Source: an uncultured Candidatus Rokubacteria bacterium
GTDB lineage: Bacteria; Methylomirabilota; Methylomirabilia; Rokubacteriales; DASRDR01
Length of the DNA stretch: 64,000 nucleotides
NCBI GenBank assembly: GCA_963826115.1
Contig: CAWGVS010000005.1
Coordinates: forward strand, 992,001 to 1,056,000
Direction: 5' to 3'
Shown here: in pieces, positions 1-42,564 of the stretch
How the letters are laid out: each line of letters opens with the position of its first letter
Numbering within the stretch: the stretch's first letter is position 1
Notes under the pieces: generated by a model
Seen by the model: the letters and a program-made list of their open reading frames with translations, nothing else
What the model was told of the DNA's origin: nothing
The model's database searches: none
Made by a program: the position numbers and the translations under genes

Positions 1-302
1 TTGAGGCCCGCCGCGGTGCCGAGCGCCGCCGACCCCGACGAGCCGAGCTGCGTGTGCATCCACGGCACCACCCACGGGGTGGTGTAGTACGTCGTGTTCG
101 CGACGTACATGCATCCGGTGGAGCCCAGCACGATGGTGCGAGGCCCCGAGGCCTTCACCATCAGCTTCATCACCAGGGCCGATTCGCAGCCCTGGCAGGT
201 CCGGTGACCCGAGGTGAAGTACTCCTCGATGGCGACCTTCTTGACGCCCTTGAAGGGCAGGAGGACCTGCGTGTCGTTGGTGAACGTCGTGGCGTCAGCC
301 AT
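1..302 (-). CDS. 2-oxoacid:ferredoxin oxidoreductase beta (TPP-binding) subunit, oxalate oxidoreductase-like; 3' end runs off the window
   Basis: Not in the ORF track. Manual translation from ATG at 302: MADATTFTNDTQVLLPFKGVKKVAIEEYFTSGHRTCQGCESALVMKLMVKASGPRTIVLGSTGCMYVANTTYYTTPWVVPWMHTQ. The GHRTCxGC and TGCMYVAN motifs match OorB/PorB; directly downstream of the alpha subunit. Confidence 0.9.
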   Translation of the reverse strand, partial: MADATTFTNDTQVLLPFKGVKKVAIEEYFTSGHRTCQGCESALVMKLMVKASGPRTIVLGSTGCMYVANTTYYTTPWVVPWMHTQLGSSGSAALGTAAGL

Positions 303-316
303 GGTCTCCCTCTCCC

Positions 317-1552
317 CTACTCGCGAACGCCCAGCCAGTAGGTCGCCCGCTCCGCGCGGCCCTTGCCGGCCGCAGCGTAGCAGATGTCCACCGCCTTGTT
401 CACGTCTTCGAGCGTGACCTCGCGCCCGCCCAGCCCGCAGATGAACCCGATCAGCGGCGGCCGGTGCTCCGCGTTGTAGAGCGCGGCGCGCACCTCGTTC
501 GCGACGACGCCCGAGCCGAAAGGCGACCCGAACGAGTAGTCGCGGTCGATCACCCCGATTGCCTTCGCGGGCCCGAGCGCCCGCGCCAGTTGCTCGTACG
601 GGAACGGCCGGAACCAGCGGAGACGGATGAGGCCGACCTTCTTCCCCTGCTTCCGCAGGCTGCGGATCGCGACCTTCACCGGCAGGGACAGCGTCCCCAT
701 CCCCATGAGGATGATGTCGGCATCCTCGGTCATGTACTCCTCGAACCAGGGATTCTCGGGGCCCCGGCCGAAGACCCGGCGGAAGTCGGCGTACGCCTCC
801 TCGATCACGCCGTAGGCGCGCTTGATCGCCTCGTCGTTCTGGCGCCGGATCTCGATGACCCAGTCCTCGTTGACCTGCGGGGCCACCGTGATCGGGTTGT
901 CCGGGTGAAGCAGGAGGTCTCCCCGGTTGTACGGCGGGAGGAACTGCTTGACGCGCTCCTGGGTCGGGACCCGGGTGATGGTCTGGGAGTGGGTCAGGAA
1001 CGCCCCGTCGGCGGAAATCGCGATCGGCAGGAACACTCGCCGATCCTCCGCCACGCGGTAGGCGATGAGCGTCGTGTCGATCGCCTCCTGCGCGGTGTCG
1101 ATCCAGACGAGAAGCCACCCCAGGTCACGCACCGACAGCGCGTCGTTGTGCTCGACGCCGAACGCGCCGGGATCGTCCAGGGCCCGGTTTCCCACCAGCG
1201 CCACCATCGGCACGCGGAGCGCGGGCGTGACCGTGATCGCCTCCATGGCGTACATCCAGCCCACGCCGGAGGACCCGCAGAACACGCGCGCGCCCACGGT
1301 CGACGCGTGCTTCACGATCTCGAACTGGCTGTGCTCGCCCTCGGCCACGATGTACTCGGCCACGAGCTTGCCGTTGGCGATCTTCTTGGCGATCGCCTGC
1401 ATCACGGTGTCGTAGGGACGGATCGGATACGCCGTGACGACGTCGATGTCGGCCAGCGTCAGGCCTTCGGCGACGGCCTCGCTGCCCGAGATGAGCATCT
1501 CGGTTTCGTCGTGGACCGCCGCACCCCCGGCGGGCTTGGTCGCGACTGCCAT
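317..1552 (-). CDS. 2-oxoacid:ferredoxin oxidoreductase alpha subunit, oxalate oxidoreductase (OorA)-like
   Basis: YPIRP, EGEH, GSSGVG, RALDDPGAFGVEH, FRPFP and GLGGRE motifs; GGAGGAGG RBS upstream; start at 1552 or 1558. Confidence 0.92.
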   Translation of the reverse strand: MAVATKPAGGAAVHDETEMLISGSEAVAEGLTLADIDVVTAYPIRPYDTVMQAIAKKIANGKLVAEYIVAEGEHSQFEIVKHASTVGARVFCGSSGVGWMYAMEAITVTPALRVPMVALVGNRALDDPGAFGVEHNDALSVRDLGWLLVWIDTAQEAIDTTLIAYRVAEDRRVFLPIAISADGAFLTHSQTITRVPTQERVKQFLPPYNRGDLLLHPDNPITVAPQVNEDWVIEIRRQNDEAIKRAYGVIEEAYADFRRVFGRGPENPWFEEYMTEDADIILMGMGTLSLPVKVAIRSLRKQGKKVGLIRLRWFRPFPYEQLARALGPAKAIGVIDRDYSFGSPFGSGVVANEVRAALYNAEHRPPLIGFICGLGGREVTLEDVNKAVDICYAAAGKGRAERATYWLGVRE

Positions 1553-1587
1553 GGACATCCTCCTCCGTCTGTTGGCGTTCGCCGGGG

Positions 1588-2865
1588 TCAGGCGCCCGGT
1601 GCTTCGGGCACGCCGGTCACGATCGACGCGGTGTCGTGCATGTGGCGCCGGGGCTCGACGCCCTTCGCCTTCGCGTTCTCACCGGGGATTCCCTCGATCA
1701 CCGGAGTGCCGCCCATCTCCAGCGGACCCTGGGACAGCTCCTCCTCGTACTGGCCGCGATACCGGAACCCGTGCGAGCGCACGGTGGTGACCTTGTCCTT
1801 GATCTTGTCGGCGGCCCAGACGCGGTACGAGTCCTTGTCCTGGCGCCACATCTCCCACTGGCTCTGGTTGTCGTCGAAGGCGGCCTCGTTCACCATCGTG
1901 ATGCAGTCCTTCACCGGGCACACCGCCTCGCACACTCCGCAGCCGCAGCACGCCTCCATGTTCGCGTCGTACAGCCCGTCCGGCGTCACGTCGAAGACGC
2001 TGTCCGGGCACTGGATCCAGCAGAGCGTGCACTTGACGCAGGTGTCGAAGTTCACGACCGGCCGCATCGTGCGCGTCGTGAACTTCTTGAAGTACGGGTT
2101 CCGCTCGGGCCGGTACCCCTTCCCGCCCTCGACCGGCTTGCCGACGGGGATCGCCGGGATCGTCAGGCCCTCCCGCATCTCCCACCACTTCGGCATCTCG
2201 AAGGAGAACGGCACCTCGTCGTTGCCCTCGGTGCTCTGGATCCGCCGGCCCTCGGCGCGCTCGTACGCTTTCCGCGCGGACTCGGCCTTCAGCTCCGAGC
2301 CCCACTCCGCCTCTCGGACGGCGGCGCAGACGGCATCGATGTCGAGGAACTCCGACGCGATCTTGGCCAGCGCCCCGAGGACCCGCGCCTCGGTGTGATC
2401 CTCCTTGAACACCCACAGCCCCGAGAACGACGCCTTCCCGGGCAGGATCCACAGGTGGTAGGGCGCGTCCTTCTTGTGGATGTCCCGCAGGAGCTCGCTC
2501 GGCGCTCGCGTCGACGTCACCATCAGGTGTCCACTCGGGAGCAGCAGGCGGTTGATCGGCTGGAGGCCGTACCACGCCCACGACTCCACGCCCTTGCAGA
2601 GCGTGTCGTCGACGCAGATGGTGACGTGGAGCTCCTTGGGCTCGTAGCGGGCCATGTGCTGCTCGAGCTCCTCCTTGGTGTCCGCCACGATCGCGAAGTC
2701 CTTGGCCGGGATGCCGTTCCGCTGCGGGCTGTCGCCGTAGCGCCCGAACGCGATGCCCCACCGCCCCGCCTTGCGGGAGGAGAGCACGATCCCGCGGGTG
2801 ATCCGCGCCGCCAGATTCTTCTGGAAGATGCCCCGGTAGACCACCTCGACGGTGAGATGCGCCAT
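1588..2865 (-). CDS. 2-oxoacid:ferredoxin oxidoreductase fused gamma-delta subunit with 2x[4Fe-4S] ferredoxin domain (OorD-like)
   Basis: N-terminal gamma-like domain (YGDSPQRNG) plus CVKCTLCWIQCP and CCGCGVCEAVCP motifs; AGGAGG RBS before ATG 2865. Confidence 0.88.
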   Translation of the reverse strand: MAHLTVEVVYRGIFQKNLAARITRGIVLSSRKAGRWGIAFGRYGDSPQRNGIPAKDFAIVADTKEELEQHMARYEPKELHVTICVDDTLCKGVESWAWYGLQPINRLLLPSGHLMVTSTRAPSELLRDIHKKDAPYHLWILPGKASFSGLWVFKEDHTEARVLGALAKIASEFLDIDAVCAAVREAEWGSELKAESARKAYERAEGRRIQSTEGNDEVPFSFEMPKWWEMREGLTIPAIPVGKPVEGGKGYRPERNPYFKKFTTRTMRPVVNFDTCVKCTLCWIQCPDSVFDVTPDGLYDANMEACCGCGVCEAVCPVKDCITMVNEAAFDDNQSQWEMWRQDKDSYRVWAADKIKDKVTTVRSHGFRYRGQYEEELSQGPLEMGGTPVIEGIPGENAKAKGVEPRRHMHDTASIVTGVPEAPGA

Positions 2866-3034
2866 GCACGGCCTCCTGCCGGCCCCGGGCAAGCCGGGGC
2901 GTGGTTGCGGTATGGTGGTCTGACCTCTCAACCGACGCTACCGGGTAAGCGCCACCCCTGTCAACAGGCTTCGCCCGCCGACGGGACCCGGGAGTCCCGT
3001 GGCGGGCGCGCGGCTCCGCCGTCGGGCCGGCGGC

Positions 3035-3436
3035 CTAGCCCATCCCGCTCGCGCGCTCGGGCTGGATCTTGTAGATGACCCGCACCTCTCCGGCCCGGCG
3101 ATAGGGATAGCGGTCCTGGCCGAGGTACTTCTTGGCGAGGCTGTCGATGTGGGCGTCGCCCCCCTGCTCGGTGATCTCGACCACGCGGCCGAGGACGCCC
3201 AGGTAGCGGTAGGCGTTGGCCGGGTCGACGATCGACAGCGAGACGGCCGCGTTCCGCCGCATGTTGCGGTCCTTCACCCGCCCCTTCGCCGAGTTCACGC
3301 GGAAGAACTTCCCGTCGTAGTCGAACCAGACCGGAGTGACCTGGGGTCCCCCGTTCGGCATCACCGTTCCCAGGTGCGCCAGCACCTTCTGGTCGGTGGT
3401 CAGCAGGTCTCCGTACTTCTTCAGCGTGTCGTTCAT
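3035..3436 (-). CDS. PPOX-class (pyridoxamine 5'-phosphate oxidase-like) putative F420/FMN-dependent oxidoreductase
   Basis: LGTVMPNGGPQVTPVWF, KDRNMRRNAAVSL and LAKKYLG motifs; GGGAGG RBS. Confidence 0.85.
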   Translation of the reverse strand: MNDTLKKYGDLLTTDQKVLAHLGTVMPNGGPQVTPVWFDYDGKFFRVNSAKGRVKDRNMRRNAAVSLSIVDPANAYRYLGVLGRVVEITEQGGDAHIDSLAKKYLGQDRYPYRRAGEVRVIYKIQPERASGMG

Positions 3437-3469: not shown

Positions 3470-4687
3470 TCAGGCCCCGGCCGCCCGGAGGGCCAGGTCC
3501 AGGGACGCCTTCAGGTCCTCCACCGCTTCGATCCCCACGGACAGTCGCACGAGCCCGGGACCGATGCCAAGCTTCGCGCGCTCGTCGTCGGACAGCGGTC
3601 GATGTGACGTCCTCGCCGGGTACGTCCAAGTCGTCGCGACGTCGCCGAAGCTCGGCGCGAACGCGATGAGCGGCTCGCCCTCCGGCGACCCCGCCTCGCG
3701 GGCCAGCACGCGGAACAGCCGCTCCACGGCCGCCGTGCCCCCGGCGAGCTCGAAGGACAGCATGCCACCGAAGCCGTCCGGGAGCAGCGTCCGGGCGAGC
3801 GCGTGCTGCGGATGTTGGGGCAAGCCCGGATAGTGGACGCGCGCCACCTCGGCGCGCCCGGCGAGGAACTCGGCCAGCGCGAGCGCGTTGGCCGAGTGAC
3901 GCTCCATGCGGAGCGCGAGCGTCCGCGCGCCGCGGAGCGTGAGCCAGGCGTCGAACGGCCCGAGGTTGAGACCGACCCGCACCGCCTGCGCCCGCGCGGC
4001 CTCGACGAGGGTCCGGGAGCCGACCAGCACTCCCGCCGTGACGTCGCCGTGGCCGGACAGGTACTTGGTCGCGCTGTGGTGCACCGCCGTGGCGCCGTGC
4101 TCGAGGGGGCGCAGGAGCGCGGGGGACGCGAACGTGCTGTCCACGAGGAGCGTCAGGTTCCGGTGGCGCGCGAGCGCCGCCAGCCGGGGCAGGTCCGCCA
4201 GACGCAGGAGCGGGTTGGACACCGCCTCGACCACGATGGCCCGCGTGGCCGCCGTCAGCGCCGCCTCCACCGAGGCCGGCTCCGTGGCGTCCGCGAAGGT
4301 CACGCCGATCCCCCACCGCGCCGCCTGCTCCCGGAGGAGCGCGGTGGTCGCGCCGTAGAGGTCCTGACCGGCGACGAGGTGGTCACCCGGCCGCAGGCCG
4401 CCGAGCAGGAACGCGCTCAGCGCGCCCATGCCCGACGCCACCACGAGCCCCGCCTCGCCCCCTTCGAGGGACGCGAGCGTGTTCTCGAGCATCGTGTGGT
4501 TCGGGGTCCCGAACCGGCCGTAGACGTACCCCGCTTCCCGCCCTTCCCAGACGGCGTCGACCTGCGCCATGTCGTCGAACACGTAGACGTTGGCCAGGTG
4601 GACGCTGGGGACCAGTGGCGTCGAGGCCGAACGGGGAGACGGCGCGGCCCGCGCGACCCGTGTCGCGAACCTGAGCGGCGCGCTCAC
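3470..4687 (-). CDS. Cys/Met metabolism PLP-dependent enzyme (cystathionine gamma-synthase/methionine gamma-lyase family)
   Basis: YGRFGTP, SGMGA, VDSTFASP, HSATKYLSGH (PLP lysine) and LVRLSVGIE; GTG start chosen at 4687. Confidence 0.9.
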   Translation of the reverse strand: MSAPLRFATRVARAAPSPRSASTPLVPSVHLANVYVFDDMAQVDAVWEGREAGYVYGRFGTPNHTMLENTLASLEGGEAGLVVASGMGALSAFLLGGLRPGDHLVAGQDLYGATTALLREQAARWGIGVTFADATEPASVEAALTAATRAIVVEAVSNPLLRLADLPRLAALARHRNLTLLVDSTFASPALLRPLEHGATAVHHSATKYLSGHGDVTAGVLVGSRTLVEAARAQAVRVGLNLGPFDAWLTLRGARTLALRMERHSANALALAEFLAGRAEVARVHYPGLPQHPQHALARTLLPDGFGGMLSFELAGGTAAVERLFRVLAREAGSPEGEPLIAFAPSFGDVATTWTYPARTSHRPLSDDERAKLGIGPGLVRLSVGIEAVEDLKASLDLALRAAGA

Positions 4688-4751
4688 CGGGGCTCCCGTA
4701 CGAACGCGGTGCCTGCGCTCCGTCCTTCGAGGGCAGTTCTTTCTGAGCGAC

Positions 4752-4761
4752 GTTGCGCAAC
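4752..4761. promoter_or_regulatory. Palindrome GTTGCGCAAC in an AT-richer divergent promoter region; possible operator
   Basis: Perfect 10-bp palindrome in the roughly 310-bp gap between divergent genes. Confidence 0.3.
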
Positions 4762-5000
4762 ATTGCATTTAGATCGACACAACGGATACTTGGAACATGT
4801 CACCGGAGAGTCCTCCTCAGTGCGTGACGCTCATCGCGCGACACTGTGTGTTCTCGAGCGCTTCCAAGCGCCCGAGCGCTGAAAAACTTGGGCCCCTCCG
4901 GGCCCTGGCGTAAAGTGGGCGAGCTTTGGGGACCGGCCCTCCGCTGGGGGCCGCGGTCGCCGACGCGAGCGGTTCCTCGACGGACGGGATCAGAGGGTCG

Positions 5001-23880: not shown

Positions 23881-25232
23881 AGTGCCTCCGCCTCGCCGGA
23901 CCAGTCGTCGGGCGGTTTGGCGCCACGCCGGTCGCCCCAGCGGCCCACCACGCCGAGCCGCTCCAGGCTGGCGATCTCGTCGTCGGGGAGGCCGAGGATC
24001 CCCTGCAGCACGTGGCGGTTGTGCCACCCCACGGGCCGCCCCGCCCACTTGTGGCGGGCCGGGGTCGCCGAGAGCTGCGGCGCCGGGCCGTAGTCCACCA
24101 CGCGCCCGTACACGCGGTCGTCCAGCTCCTCGACGCTGCCGCGGGCGCGGAAGTGGGCATCCTCGTACTGGTCGCGCGCGCTCTTCACCGGCGCGGCGGC
24201 GAAGCCGTGGCTCCGCGCCGCGGCCTCGACCTCGTCGCGCGAGCGGTCCCTGCACCACTCGCGGATCGAGTCGTCCAGGAGGTCGGCATGACCCGGCCCG
24301 CGCCGGGCCGCGGCGCTCGCGAACCGCGGGTCGGCGGCGAGATCCGGCCGTCCGAGCGCCTGCGCAAGGCCGCGGAACTCGTCGTCGGTCCCCGCGACGA
24401 TGGCGACGTGGCCGTCCCGGCACGGGTAGATCCCGGAGGGGGCGAACGCCGGGTCGCGATTGCCGGTCTTCGGGCGATCGCGTCCCGTCAGACCTGCGTG
24501 GAGCCAGGTCCAGTCGAGCGCGCGCAGGATCCCTTCGCACTGGGCCATCTCGACGAACTGCCCCTCGCCCGTGCGGTCGCGCCAGCGGAGCGCCGCCAGC
24601 ACGCCCATCGCCGAGAGACACGCGCCGAACCAGTCGCCGAGGTAGTTGCCGGACTTGATCGGGAGCGCGTCCTCGAAGCCCGAGATCCCGACGAGCCCCG
24701 CCACCGCCTGCGCGAGACCGTCGTAGGAGGCGCGCCCCTCGGCGAAGGGCCCCCACTGGCCGAAGCCCGTGTTCGCGACGTAGATGAGCCGCGGGTTGAC
24801 CTCGCGGAGCTGCCGGTAGCCGAGCCCCCACTTCGCCTCGGTGGTGCCGGGCTTGAAGTTCTCGACGACGATGTCCGAGCGCGCGGCGAGCTTCCGGATC
24901 AGCGCCTGGCCCTCGGCGTGGTGCATGTCGACGCCGATGTGGTACTTCCCGTGGTTCTGCGGGAAGAACGCGACCGACACGTTCTTCCAGAAGCAGCCGG
25001 CGTGCCCGAGGATCCGGGTCACGTCGCCCTGACCCGGCATCTCGACCTTGATGACCTCGGCCCCGAGCTCGCCCAGGAAGTCGGCGGTGGCCGGGCCGAA
25101 GATGATGACCGACAGGTCGAGAACCCGGATCCCCCGGAGGGCCTCGGGCTTCGCGTGGCGATTTGCGGGATCGAAGAGGCGCGCCGCCCACTCGGCGTAG
25201 GCCTCGCGGTCAGGCTCCGGGCGGGCGGTCAC
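23877..25232 (-). CDS. Family III CoA-transferase; probable catalytic subunit
   Basis: KPEALRGIRVLDL, LGAEVIKVE, DIVVENFKPG, GNYLGD (Asp retained) and TGEGQFVE. Confidence 0.9.
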   Translation of the reverse strand: MTARPEPDREAYAEWAARLFDPANRHAKPEALRGIRVLDLSVIIFGPATADFLGELGAEVIKVEMPGQGDVTRILGHAGCFWKNVSVAFFPQNHGKYHIGVDMHHAEGQALIRKLAARSDIVVENFKPGTTEAKWGLGYRQLREVNPRLIYVANTGFGQWGPFAEGRASYDGLAQAVAGLVGISGFEDALPIKSGNYLGDWFGACLSAMGVLAALRWRDRTGEGQFVEMAQCEGILRALDWTWLHAGLTGRDRPKTGNRDPAFAPSGIYPCRDGHVAIVAGTDDEFRGLAQALGRPDLAADPRFASAAARRGPGHADLLDDSIREWCRDRSRDEVEAAARSHGFAAAPVKSARDQYEDAHFRARGSVEELDDRVYGRVVDYGPAPQLSATPARHKWAGRPVGWHNRHVLQGILGLPDDEIASLERLGVVGRWGDRRGAKPPDDWSGEAEAL

Positions 25233-26443: not shown

Positions 26444-27655
26444 TCAGGCCGCGACCGTCGAGCCTAGCGCGCCCGAGGCGCGGAGCTCGGCAATGGCCGC
26501 CGGCGCGAGGCCGAGAACGTCGCGGAGGACCGCGTCGGTGTGCTCGCCCAGATTGGGCGGCGGGCCCTGGACGGCCGCCGGAGTCCCGGCGAACTTCACG
26601 GGAATCCCCGGAAGGCGCACGCGCCCCGCGGTGGGATGGTCGACCTCGACCGCCATGTCCCGATACCGCACCTGCGGATCCTCGAACACCTCGCGGATGT
26701 CGTTGATCGGGCCCGCCGGGAGTCCCGCCTCCGCGAAGCGGGCGACCCACTCGTCGCGGTCTTGGGCCTGGAGCCGCGCCTCGATCTCGCGGACGAGCTC
26801 GGCCCGGCACGCGACGCGGCGGGCGTTCGAGCCGTAGCGCGGGTCGTCGGCCCACTCCGGCGCCCCCAGGACCTCGCAGAACGCCTTCCACAGCCGCTCG
26901 TTCCCGGCGCCGACCATCATGTAGCCGTCGCGAGCCCGGAAGGCCTGGTAGGGCACCAGGGACGGATGCGCGCTTCCCCAGCGTCCCTGCACCTCGCCGC
27001 CCACGAGATACGCGGTCGCCGCGTTGATCAGGGCGGCGATCCCGCACTCCATCAGCGAGAGCTCGAGGAACTGCCCCTCGCCCGTGCGGTCCCGGTGCCG
27101 CAGCGCCGCGAGGATCGCCCCGTGGGCGTAGAGCGCGGTGATCGCGTCGATCAGTGCCACGCCCACCTTGACCGGCGCGCCGCCGCTCTCGCCGGTGATC
27201 GACATGAGGCCCGTGAATCCCTGCAGGATGGCGTCGTAGCCGGCCCGCTCGCGGTACGGCCCGGTCGCCCCGAACCCCGAGATCGCGCAGTAGACCAGCC
27301 GGGGGTTGACCGCCCGCAGCGTCGCCCAGCCGAGCCCGAGGTCGTCCATGGTCCCCGGCTTGAAGTTCTCGATCAGGACGTCTGCGCGCCGCACGAGGTC
27401 CAGGACCAGGGCCTTCCCTCGGGGGTGCTTCAGGTCGACCGTGATGCTCCGCTTGCCGCGGTTCACCGCGAAGAAGTACGACGCCTGCCCGTCGGCGGCG
27501 CGCGGCGGCGACCACTGCCGGCTGTCGTCGCCGCCCTGCGGGTGCTCGACCTTGATCACCTCGGCGCCATAGTCACCGAGGATCTGGGTCGCGAACGGGC
27601 CCGCGACGATGCGCGAGAGGTCGATGATCCGGAGGTCTTCGAGCGGGCCGGGCAT
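26444..27655 (-). CDS. Family III CoA-transferase
   Basis: DLSRIVAGP, NRGKRS, ENFKPG, GVALID motifs. Confidence 0.92.
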   Translation of the reverse strand: MPGPLEDLRIIDLSRIVAGPFATQILGDYGAEVIKVEHPQGGDDSRQWSPPRAADGQASYFFAVNRGKRSITVDLKHPRGKALVLDLVRRADVLIENFKPGTMDDLGLGWATLRAVNPRLVYCAISGFGATGPYRERAGYDAILQGFTGLMSITGESGGAPVKVGVALIDAITALYAHGAILAALRHRDRTGEGQFLELSLMECGIAALINAATAYLVGGEVQGRWGSAHPSLVPYQAFRARDGYMMVGAGNERLWKAFCEVLGAPEWADDPRYGSNARRVACRAELVREIEARLQAQDRDEWVARFAEAGLPAGPINDIREVFEDPQVRYRDMAVEVDHPTAGRVRLPGIPVKFAGTPAAVQGPPPNLGEHTDAVLRDVLGLAPAAIAELRASGALGSTVAA

Positions 27656-41367: not shown

Positions 41368-42564
41368 TCAGACGACGTGGTCCCGCCTGAACGCCGCGAT
41401 CTCGTCGGCGGAATAGCCGAGCTGGCCCAGGACCTCGGTCGTGTGGGCGCCGAGTTTCGGCGCCACGCTCCGCACCGCGACGGAGCTCCGGGACAGGCGT
41501 ACCGGCACACGCACGTGGGGGACCTGGCCGAGCACCGGATCCTCCGCGTGCACGACCATGCCCAGGTGGCGGACCTGCGGGTCCGAGAAAAGCTGGCCGT
41601 AGGTGTTGACCGGGCCGGACGGCACCCCGGCGGCGTCGAGCGCGGCGACCCAGTGGGCCGTCGGGCGCGTCGCCAGGACGCGCTCGAGCTCACGCTCGAG
41701 GGCCTCCCGGTGCTGGAGACGGTCGGCGTTCCGCCGGAAGCGCGCGTCGTCGATCCAGTCCGGCCGTCCGAGCGCCCGGGCGCAGCGCTCCCACAGCTCC
41801 TGCGTGGCGGCGCCGATCATCAGGTAGCCGTCCTGGGTGGCGAAGCGCTGGTACGGCGCGTTCTGGCGGTGGCGGGCCCCTTGGCGCGTCGGCTCGCGCC
41901 CGTCCACGAGCCACGCGGCGCCGGTCCACCCCGAGAAGCCGAGGGCCGTCTCGAGGAGCGAGCAGTCGACCTTCTGGCCCCGGCCCGTGCGCTCGCGCTC
42001 GTAGAGGGCGGCCAGGATCCCCTGGACGCCCCACATGCCGGTCCCGAGGTCGCAGATCGGCTGGCCGACCGACGTCGGCGGGCCGTCGGGCTCGCCGGTG
42101 ACGTGCATCAGTCCGCCCATTCCCTGGGCGATCAGGTCGAGGCCACCCTTGTCCCGGTAGGGGCCGTCCGGCCCGAACCCGCTCAGCTGCGCGTAGATCA
42201 GGCGCGGATTCTCGGCCGCGAGCGCCTCGTACCCGAGCCGGGCGCGCTCCATCACCGTCGCCCGGTAGTTCTCCACGAGGACGTCGACGCTCCGCACGAG
42301 ACGGAGAAACACCTCCCGCCCCGCCGCCCCCTTGTAGTCGAGGGTCACGCTCTTCTTGTTCCGGTTGATGTACCGGAAGAAGGGATTGCGCTCGGCGCCG
42401 TCGCCCATCGCGCGGGAGGAGTCACCCTTGCCGGGCCGCTCGAGCTTCAGCACCTCGGCCCCCATGTCCGCCAGGATCATCGTGCAGAACGGGCCGGCCA
42501 TGTGCTCGGTGAGGTCGAGGACCCGGAGACCCTGGAGCGGGCCCGAGGCAGTCGATGCGCTCAC
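41368..42564 (-). CDS. Family III CoA-transferase
   Basis: DLTEHMAGP, NRNKKS, ENYR and GQPICD motifs. Confidence 0.92.
   Translation of the reverse strand: MSASTASGPLQGLRVLDLTEHMAGPFCTMILADMGAEVLKLERPGKGDSSRAMGDGAERNPFFRYINRNKKSVTLDYKGAAGREVFLRLVRSVDVLVENYRATVMERARLGYEALAAENPRLIYAQLSGFGPDGPYRDKGGLDLIAQGMGGLMHVTGEPDGPPTSVGQPICDLGTGMWGVQGILAALYERERTGRGQKVDCSLLETALGFSGWTGAAWLVDGREPTRQGARHRQNAPYQRFATQDGYLMIGAATQELWERCARALGRPDWIDDARFRRNADRLQHREALERELERVLATRPTAHWVAALDAAGVPSGPVNTYGQLFSDPQVRHLGMVVHAEDPVLGQVPHVRVPVRLSRSSVAVRSVAPKLGAHTTEVLGQLGYSADEIAAFRRDHVV

Follow-up and report, generated by a model that had tools for sequence, protein, structure and literature searches.

Oxalate is a major carbon flux in soil, released by plants and fungi and feeding the oxalate-carbonate pathway, and surveys of its use by bacteria rely on the marker genes frc and oxc. 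The oxalate oxidoreductase (OOR; EC 1.2.7.10) of the acetogen Moorella thermoacetica is, to our knowledge, the sole known enzyme of its kind. Here we describe an operon for an OOR-like enzyme found at the start of a 64,000-nucleotide stretch of DNA (the window) from an uncultured Candidatus Rokubacteria bacterium. The window corresponds to positions 992001-1056000 of one contig of a 6.24-Mb genome (G000:C5:992001-1056000; G+C 68-77%), in which the operon carries the only OOR-like alpha gene.

The operon occupies the minus strand and comprises three closely spaced genes, arranged gamma-delta, alpha, beta. The gamma-delta gene (1588-2865; 425 aa) encodes a fusion of domain III with the two-cluster ferredoxin domain V, and its ATG is preceded by AGGAGG at a distance of 6 nt. 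The alpha gene (317-1558; 413 aa; Pfam POR_N and PFOR_II) encodes domains I-II and starts 29 nt past the gamma-delta stop, and the beta gene, encoding domain VI, which binds thiamine pyrophosphate (TPP), and one [4Fe-4S] cluster, starts 14 nt past the alpha stop. A preliminary description, made from the letters of the window alone, had given positions 1-2865 for the operon. This holds for gamma-delta and alpha, but of beta only the first 100 codons (1-302) are inside the window; the remainder lies before the window start, on the same strand (G000:C5:991277-992000), and the full 341 aa were read from the genome.

Cysteine ligands for three [4Fe-4S] clusters are present, one in beta and two in gamma-delta. 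In the beta translation, the motifs GHRTCQGC and TGCMYVAN could be seen as the preliminary description had listed them. The cysteines of GHRTCQGC are cluster ligands, and the TPP motif is kept as GDG at residues 121-123 together with Asn156. The gamma-delta protein has two CxxCxxCxxxCP motifs (residues 276-287 and 306-317; 1915-2040, minus strand; Pfam Fer4_21), each expected to hold one cluster. Pfam recognises in this subunit the dicluster ferredoxin domain only. Residues 8-331 nevertheless align weakly with the delta subunit of Moorella OOR (5c4i_B), and a Foldseek search with an AlphaFold2 model of gamma-delta gave OOR delta chains as its best matches (E 2e-18), followed by PorC gamma subunits. 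The model has a mean pLDDT (predicted local distance difference test) of 62, with the ferredoxin domain and the tail below 50, and its N-terminal domain III fold alone is usable. Because of the 5c4i_B alignment and the Foldseek matches, together with the open reading frames on the minus strand, the fused gamma-delta, alpha, beta layout proposed earlier can be regarded as real.

Past the second cluster motif, gamma-delta continues into a conserved C-terminal extension of about 50 aa (residues ~326-375; 1741-1890, minus strand), which is absent from Moorella OOR delta and from one metagenomic relative (L089, described below). In an alignment of 14 sequences, F330, N333, S335-Q336-W337, R363, H365-G366-F367-R368 and G371-Q372-Y373 of this tail are invariant in all 14, as are the CxxCxxCxxxCP motifs, whereas the last residues, 376-425 (1591-1740, minus strand), are unconserved. 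Pfam gave no match for the tail (residues 326-375).

The active site compared with Moorella oxalate oxidoreductase

Moorella OOR (PDB 5c4i, 5exd and 5exe; NCBIfam NF045790-NF045792) provides the closest solved structure for each of the three subunits. By phmmer, alpha matches 5c4i_A with an E-value of 1.9e-101 (343.4 bits) and beta matches 5c4i_C with an E-value of 9.6e-89. The two enzymes share the gene order gamma-delta, alpha, beta, the fused domains III-V, the TPP motif and the three [4Fe-4S] cysteine motifs. The second-best solved relative, of the same superfamily and with the same domain set, is the archaeal-type pyruvate:ferredoxin oxidoreductase (PFOR) of Methanosarcina acetivorans (PDB 9bt4; alpha E 3.7e-61, beta E 3.3e-59). 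Four-subunit PFORs are CoA-dependent, have separate gamma and delta subunits and carry the motif YPITP, whose Thr contacts the methyl side of the substrate in PFOR and in 2-ketoisovalerate:ferredoxin oxidoreductase (VOR). In contrast, the window enzyme has a fused gamma-delta subunit, and its alpha translation reads YPIRP (residues 44-48; 1415-1429, minus strand), in agreement with the preliminary description.

Three alpha residues of Moorella OOR, Arg31, Arg109 and Asp116, are of particular interest as substrate contacts. The alignment of the window alpha with 5c4i_A runs without a gap from query residue 23 to about residue 210. Within it, Arg47 of the YPIRP motif corresponds to OOR Arg31, and the loop R125-H137 (1148-1186, minus strand), with the sequence RALDDPGAFGVEH, lies over the OOR loop RTLDPPGDFGEEH, so that Arg125 corresponds to Arg109. 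Because this loop alignment is ungapped, Ala132 (1163-1165, minus strand) stands in place of Asp116. The two Asp of the alpha 'DD' pair fall on OOR Asp112 and Pro113, with Asp129 at the latter position, and at the sequence level neither is at position 116. The earlier claim that both arginines are kept while the Asp116 equivalent is Ala is thereby borne out. In published work on the Moorella enzyme (PMC5020499), Arg31, Arg109 and Asp116 are given roles in the active site, including a mobile-loop 'bait and switch'.

A further substitution was found in beta. The window protein reads DNESYANTDIQ where OOR reads DNESYANTGIQ, placing Asp158-beta (G000:C5:991829-991831, minus strand, outside the window) at the position of OOR Gly145-beta. 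This Asp lies two residues after the equivalent of OOR Asn143-beta, a residue that we take to match Asn996 of Desulfovibrio africanus PFOR, which contacts the substrate. The window enzyme therefore differs from Moorella OOR by Ala for Asp116-alpha, Asp for Pro113-alpha and Asp for Gly145-beta.

A sister clade of the Asp116-bearing enzymes

The state of the loop is shared by the close relatives of the window enzyme. YPIRP and NRALDDPGAFGVEH are present in all 121 database homologs of 81-100% identity, and the close homologs come from organisms named as Candidatus Rokubacteria or Methylomirabilota and carry the source name 'pyruvate ferredoxin oxidoreductase alpha subunit'. Scanning a single genome for each species yielded 519 relatives, of which the best 80 (67-94% identical to the window alpha) provided the figures on loci given below. 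Hereafter, A-type denotes the clade of the window enzyme, with Ala at the OOR-116 position, and Asp-type denotes the OOR clade with Asp116. Among the 80 related loci, Ala occupies the OOR-116 position in 74/74 A-type alphas that could be called.

A lineage survey based on alpha representatives at 50% identity distinguished three YPIRP lineages. The A-type lineage has the loop NRALDDPGAFG[VCT]EH, the Asp-type lineage has the loop DRTLDPPGDFG[SE]EH and aligns with the window alpha at 35-41% identity, and the Asn form (P0136), with the loop NRALDDPGNFAMEW, is 47% identical to it. All remaining matches have YPITP-like motifs and at most 40% identity. When 118 relatives of the Asp-type representative P0138 were checked for motifs, the loop was matched in 111, and 110 of these 111 have Asp116. 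In addition, two metagenome contigs carry further YPIRP lineages. One, an intermediate lineage (L089, 4061-6826), combines Ala116 and YPIRPYTG with NTGIQ in beta and a short gamma-delta of 309 aa; the other (L087, 3885-7168) has Asn116, split gamma and delta subunits and likewise NTGIQ in beta.

The A-type is a separate, large sister group of the Asp-bearing OORs within the YPIRP lineage. This is seen in an alpha tree of 66 rows, built with a quick method and Shimodaira-Hasegawa-like approximate likelihood ratio test (SH-aLRT) support, which contains some long outgroup branches and represents the OOR clade by sequences other than that of Moorella. The YPIRP sequences form one clade (support 100), within which the A-type rows (18/18) and the Asp-type rows (13/13) each form a clade of their own with support 100; the Asn form is sister to the A-type clade (support 90). 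The A-type is thus placed as sister to the Asp-type clade and not inside the clade of Moorella OOR. Across a support-100 branch from the YPIRP enzymes stand 29 of the 30 unfused full-length YPITP sequences. The assignment to the YPIRP/OOR lineage as a distinct sister clade, first suggested from the window sequence, is hence upheld, and the clustering with ordinary PFORs that would have spoken against it is not what the tree gives, as it separates the YPIRP from the YPITP group.

The family models draw the same line. The window alpha scores 376.7 bits against NCBIfam OxalOxredalpha (cut-off 500), beta scores 348.4 against OxalOxredbeta (cut-off 590) and gamma-delta 75.9 against the OOR delta model (cut-off 230). 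Five of five tested Asp-type alphas pass OxalOxredalpha with 533-583 bits, whereas another A-type alpha (399.1) and the Asn form (385.4) stay below 500. Likewise, the Asp-type P0138 reaches 511.7 bits against 5c4i_A, compared with the 343.4 bits of the window alpha. The window proteins are also below the NCBIfam PorA and PorB cut-offs, alpha scoring 333.9 of 550 bits with PorA_Arch, 282.7 of 625 with PRK08367 and 246.8 of 646 with the VorA model PRK08366. It is because the OOR model cut-offs are missed that the public label reads 'pyruvate ferredoxin oxidoreductase'.

Comparison of 103 A-type with 92 Asp-type alphas identified 123 columns with a within-clade conservation of 95% or more in both groups; the two clades share the residue in 88 of these columns and differ in 35. 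The fixed differences include (A-type > Asp-type) D50>T, N124>D, A126>T, D129>P, A132>D and N138>T. In beta, the Asp of NTDIQ is present in 62/63 A-type sequences, and the position is Gly in 3/3 Asp-type betas and in all 8 motif-showing sequences among 12 fused PFOR-like ones that were checked. Judging from these alignments, acidic residues that are fixed in the A-type clade, namely alpha-Asp129, beta-Asp158 or alpha-Asp50, may supply the charge lost with Asp116. Asp at position 113 is common to all lineages without Asp116. The beta Asp as a strict compensation for the lost Asp116 was considered and rejected, as L077, L087 and L089 have no Asp116 and have Gly in beta.

Gene neighbourhood, regulation and distribution

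In the window genome, beta is followed directly on the same strand by genes for TctC, TctB, TctA, a cytidylate-kinase-like protein with a BON domain and a GntR/FCD regulator, a block that lies before the window start (G000:C5:985749-991145, minus strand; L002 11748-17145). TctCBA belongs to the tripartite tricarboxylate transporter (TTT) family. By tblastn, gamma-delta was detected in 77 of the 80 loci, alpha in 80, beta in 73 and the GntR/FCD regulator in 69. Downstream genes were counted in those 63 loci whose sequence extends 1500 nt or more beyond beta; a major facilitator superfamily (MFS) transporter follows beta directly in 29 of them and Tct genes in 21. All 33 MFS proteins of that cluster pass TIGR04259, the model for the oxalate/formate antiporter OxlT (cut-off 335), with 378-536 bits, and 13 control genomes had matches below the cut-off and none above it. 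The Asn-form locus L087 also holds a transporter passing TIGR04259 (419 bits). The OxlT-type transporter and the GntR regulator of homologous loci are points of likeness to Moorella OOR. The A-type hosts, by contrast, are uncultured soil bacteria and not an acetogen, and the transporter at the window locus is TctCBA.

Within the window genome, no OxlT was found above the TIGR04259 cut-off (best 94.9 bits), no oxc above its family cut-off (300.5 vs 739.4 bits) and no frc above its family cut-off (224.4 vs 504.2 bits). Three family-III CoA-transferase paralogs in the window (~24525-25142, 27047-27646 and 41941-42540) match positions 3-204 of the frc model with 144-176 bits, far below the cut-off, and there are 18 partial matches to this model genome-wide.

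About six Acidobacteria-type loci have an upstream triad of a class-V aminotransferase, an AMP-forming acyl-CoA ligase and a PanE-family reductase. The triad lies upstream of the GntR gene and is complete in L032, L037, L038, L042 and L074 and partial in L039. The best match of the aminotransferase is aspartate-glyoxylate aminotransferase, below the cut-off. PanE2 of Methylobacterium extorquens is described as a putative oxalyl-CoA reductase (PMC8411744). The triad could possibly constitute a route from oxalate via oxalyl-CoA and glyoxylate to glycine.

Asp-type operons can also be neighbours of A-type ones. The two types are side by side in two Acidobacteria metagenome-assembled genomes (MAGs), where Asp-type operons adjoining A-type ones occupy 717-5687 of L053 and 6364-11264 of L059, and partly so in L073 and L078. 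Genomes G048 and G053 each contain one match of 70-71% and one of 41-42% identity, the latter called Asp-type by identity alone. The loci scan gave A-type loci only, and the Asp-type operons compared here are those beside A-type ones. The operons of L053 and L059 belong to the YPIRP lineage like the window enzyme, and that of L078 adjoins an OxlT-type transporter. They differ in keeping DRTLDPPGDFGSEH and NTGIQ in beta, in having a separate gamma subunit, and in that a 610-aa GltD-like NAD(P)-binding subunit bears the two ferredoxin motifs.

Several other genes recur nearby. Five loci contain a formamidase/acetamidase-family gene (61 bits, far below the FmdA equivalog cut-off of 500). In L028 (12009-13412), L029 and L066 it immediately follows the OxlT-type transporter; in L046 it is found upstream of the regulator; and L047, which lacks such a transporter, has it after beta. 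Upstream of the window operon, on the minus strand, are a PNPOx-family gene (3035-3436) and a gene for a Cys/Met-metabolism pyridoxal phosphate enzyme (3470-4768). Most other Rokubacteria loci (L006-L023) have MocR, PdxS and PdxT upstream; vitamin B6 genes thus recur with no evident link to the operon.

Upstream of gamma-delta, a candidate -35 box TTGACA (2959-2964) and a candidate -10 box TAGCGT (2935-2940), both on the minus strand, were recognised by positional conservation only. The palindrome GGTCAGACC (2917-2925; minus-strand sequence), which precedes the gamma-delta start codon by 52-60 nt, is a candidate GntR/FadR-type operator, and its half-sites presumably resemble the operator of FadR-subfamily GntR proteins. 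The pattern GGTCNGACC occurs 30-45 nt after TTGACA in the window, and 17 of the 20 extractable Rokubacteria-type loci (L003-L023) show the same arrangement. With 1 match in the window against 4.5 expected, the palindrome on its own is not rarer than chance, and a consensus promoter scan upstream of the operon called no promoter. Given the conserved position of these elements, and that only, the operon is probably transcribed from a TTGACA-type promoter under a GntR/FCD regulator acting via GGTCAGACC.

The A-type enzyme is widespread. Of 151 genomes sampled from the phylum, 99 have an A-type alpha (at least 69% identity), which is cut by contig ends in 8; these counts include the unpublished genomes G029, G058 and G047, without which they are 96 of 148. 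The best 80 loci come from MAGs labelled Acidobacteriota (42), Methylomirabilota/Rokuibacteriota (17), Myxococcota (5), Armatimonadota (3) and others. Four loci (L016, L077, L012 and L015), 68-81% identical to the window alpha, are from MAGs labelled Nitrososphaerota, Patescibacteria and Thermodesulfobacteriota. Loci with such labels are ~80% identical to those of Rokubacteria, and the labels may be binning errors.

Four RNA libraries from soil or rhizosphere, each from a different study, contain contigs at least 88% identical to positions 1-3100 of the window. The runs gave 984, 505, 94 and 161 contigs, covering 29, 29, 24 and 29 of 30 bins. The majority are 90-99% alike and thus derive chiefly from relatives. 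The bin upstream of the operon (2913-3016) has zero depth in three of the four runs, which carries no weight in contig data. The contigs are a weak hint that the A-type clade is transcribed in soils, as RNA libraries can also hold DNA.

Oxalate or another substrate

What does the A-type enzyme oxidise? The window enzyme shares with Moorella OOR the layout, both arginines and the cofactor motifs, and departs from it in Asp116, in its scores against the family models and in its place on the tree. Its predicted function is most like that of Moorella OOR, yet it lies outside that equivalog family as curated. The sequence data establish gene structure, homology, motif states, membership of the clade, synteny and prevalence, whereas the substrate, independence of CoA, the acid replacing Asp116, the ligand of the transporter and the regulation are inferred. 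The preliminary description had proposed either a different small substrate or oxalate oxidised by an altered mechanism. The transporter genes and the triad lend more support to the latter and less to the former, and we think it somewhat probable that the window enzyme is a CoA-independent oxalate oxidoreductase, converting oxalate to two CO2 by a mechanism that differs from that of the Moorella enzyme. Oxalate would be taken up via the TctCBA system encoded directly downstream, and held by Arg47-alpha and Arg125-alpha, which correspond to Arg31 and Arg109 of OOR, while the TPP ylide attacks it. It would then be decarboxylated twice, and two electrons would pass via the cluster of beta and the pair in gamma-delta to a ferredoxin. 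Expression would start at the TTGACA-type promoter and be governed by the GntR/FCD regulator acting at GGTCAGACC. In a more specific and quite tentative version, to which we give limited credence, the A-type carries out OOR chemistry with a fixed acid (alpha-Asp129 and/or beta-Asp158) in place of the switch Asp, and the conserved gamma-delta tail helps the enzyme to function in soil bacteria that are facultatively aerobic.

Several observations weigh against these proposals. The window subunits fall below all three OOR equivalog cut-offs (NF045790-NF045792), and many of the fixed alpha differences fall in the loops 122-138 and 223-241. It is from the neighbourhood alone that oxalate is assigned as the substrate, and the neighbourhood is not uniform: in 13 of the 63 loci beta is followed by neither transporter, the window locus carries TctCBA instead of an OxlT-type transporter, and the MFS protein of L072, the sole one scanned loosely, narrowly passes the model of the L-lactate transporter SfMCT as well (329.9 vs 320). 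The TctC protein of the window genome has no match among NCBIfam models and is only distantly related to proteins of solved structure (best 4x9t_A, E 1.3e-29). An A-type operon beside an Asp-type one, or in the same genome, argues against simple redundancy of the two. As for the fixed acid, the beta Asp is not always coupled to the loss of Asp116, since L077 and L089 (Ala116) and L087 (Asn116) carry Gly. The link between Pro113-to-Asp and the lost Asp116 may go back to a single event, because all lineages without Asp116 are on one side of the tree. The RNA-library contigs, coming partly from relatives, are no proof of transcription.

Some of these observations are what would be expected of an oxidoreductase for another small anion, such as glyoxylate, oxamate, mesoxalate or another short dicarboxylate, whether CoA-independent or CoA-dependent, which would enter through TctCBA in Rokubacteria. 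On this view the A-type would have parted from OOR in its substrate as well as its mechanism. Asp116 is missing, the 35 fixed differences cluster in loops near the active site, the scores are under every OOR equivalog cut-off, and the transporter of the window lineage is a TTT system without an assigned ligand. The A-type operons adjoining Asp-type ones in L053 and L059, and the co-occurrence of both types in G048 and G053, suggest non-redundancy, and a formamidase-family gene lies beside the transporter in three loci and elsewhere in two. However, the gene following beta scores above the oxalate/formate antiporter cut-off in 29 of 63 loci, and the triad upstream in about six loci is of the kind expected for assimilation through oxalyl-CoA; oxalate is favoured over a different substrate because of these two features. 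The adjacent Asp-type operons also carry the GltD-like NAD(P) subunit, so that what sets the two enzymes apart may be the electron acceptor and not the substrate. On balance, a different anion seems unlikely to us, albeit a case to be taken seriously. The reading conveyed by the public labels, an ordinary CoA-dependent pyruvate or 2-ketoisovalerate:ferredoxin oxidoreductase, is highly improbable. The close homologs are so named and the archaeal PorA model gives 333.9 bits, but this score is below both its cut-off of 550 and the score of the OOR model, the Thr of YPITP is replaced by Arg, the support-100 branch separates the enzyme from 29 of the 30 unfused full-length YPITP sequences, and the neighbours are oxalate-type transporters and not genes of pyruvate metabolism.

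Our literature searches, which covered journals open without subscription, turned up no paper on the A-type clade and no assay of it. Among the listed papers on 'oxalate oxidoreductase', going by titles and the opening of abstracts, none deals with an enzyme of soil, Rokubacteria or Acidobacteria, and the listed papers that pair the enzyme with the phylum names do not contain that term. The operon is present, under the label 'pyruvate ferredoxin oxidoreductase', in 99 of the 151 sampled genomes of the phylum and in many MAGs of Acidobacteriota and Myxococcota. If it oxidises oxalate, a common route has been overlooked, and the 'bait and switch' Asp proposed for the Moorella enzyme would not be required across the family, of which the A-type clade is a natural Asp116-to-Ala variant. 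If the substrate is another acid, the clade would add a new substrate class to the enzyme superfamily. Should the fixed-acid version prove true, soils would hold a widespread oxalate sink without frc and oxc that is missed by marker-gene surveys, and the tripartite tricarboxylate transporter family would gain, in the neighbouring TctC of Rokubacteria, its first oxalate-specific receptor.

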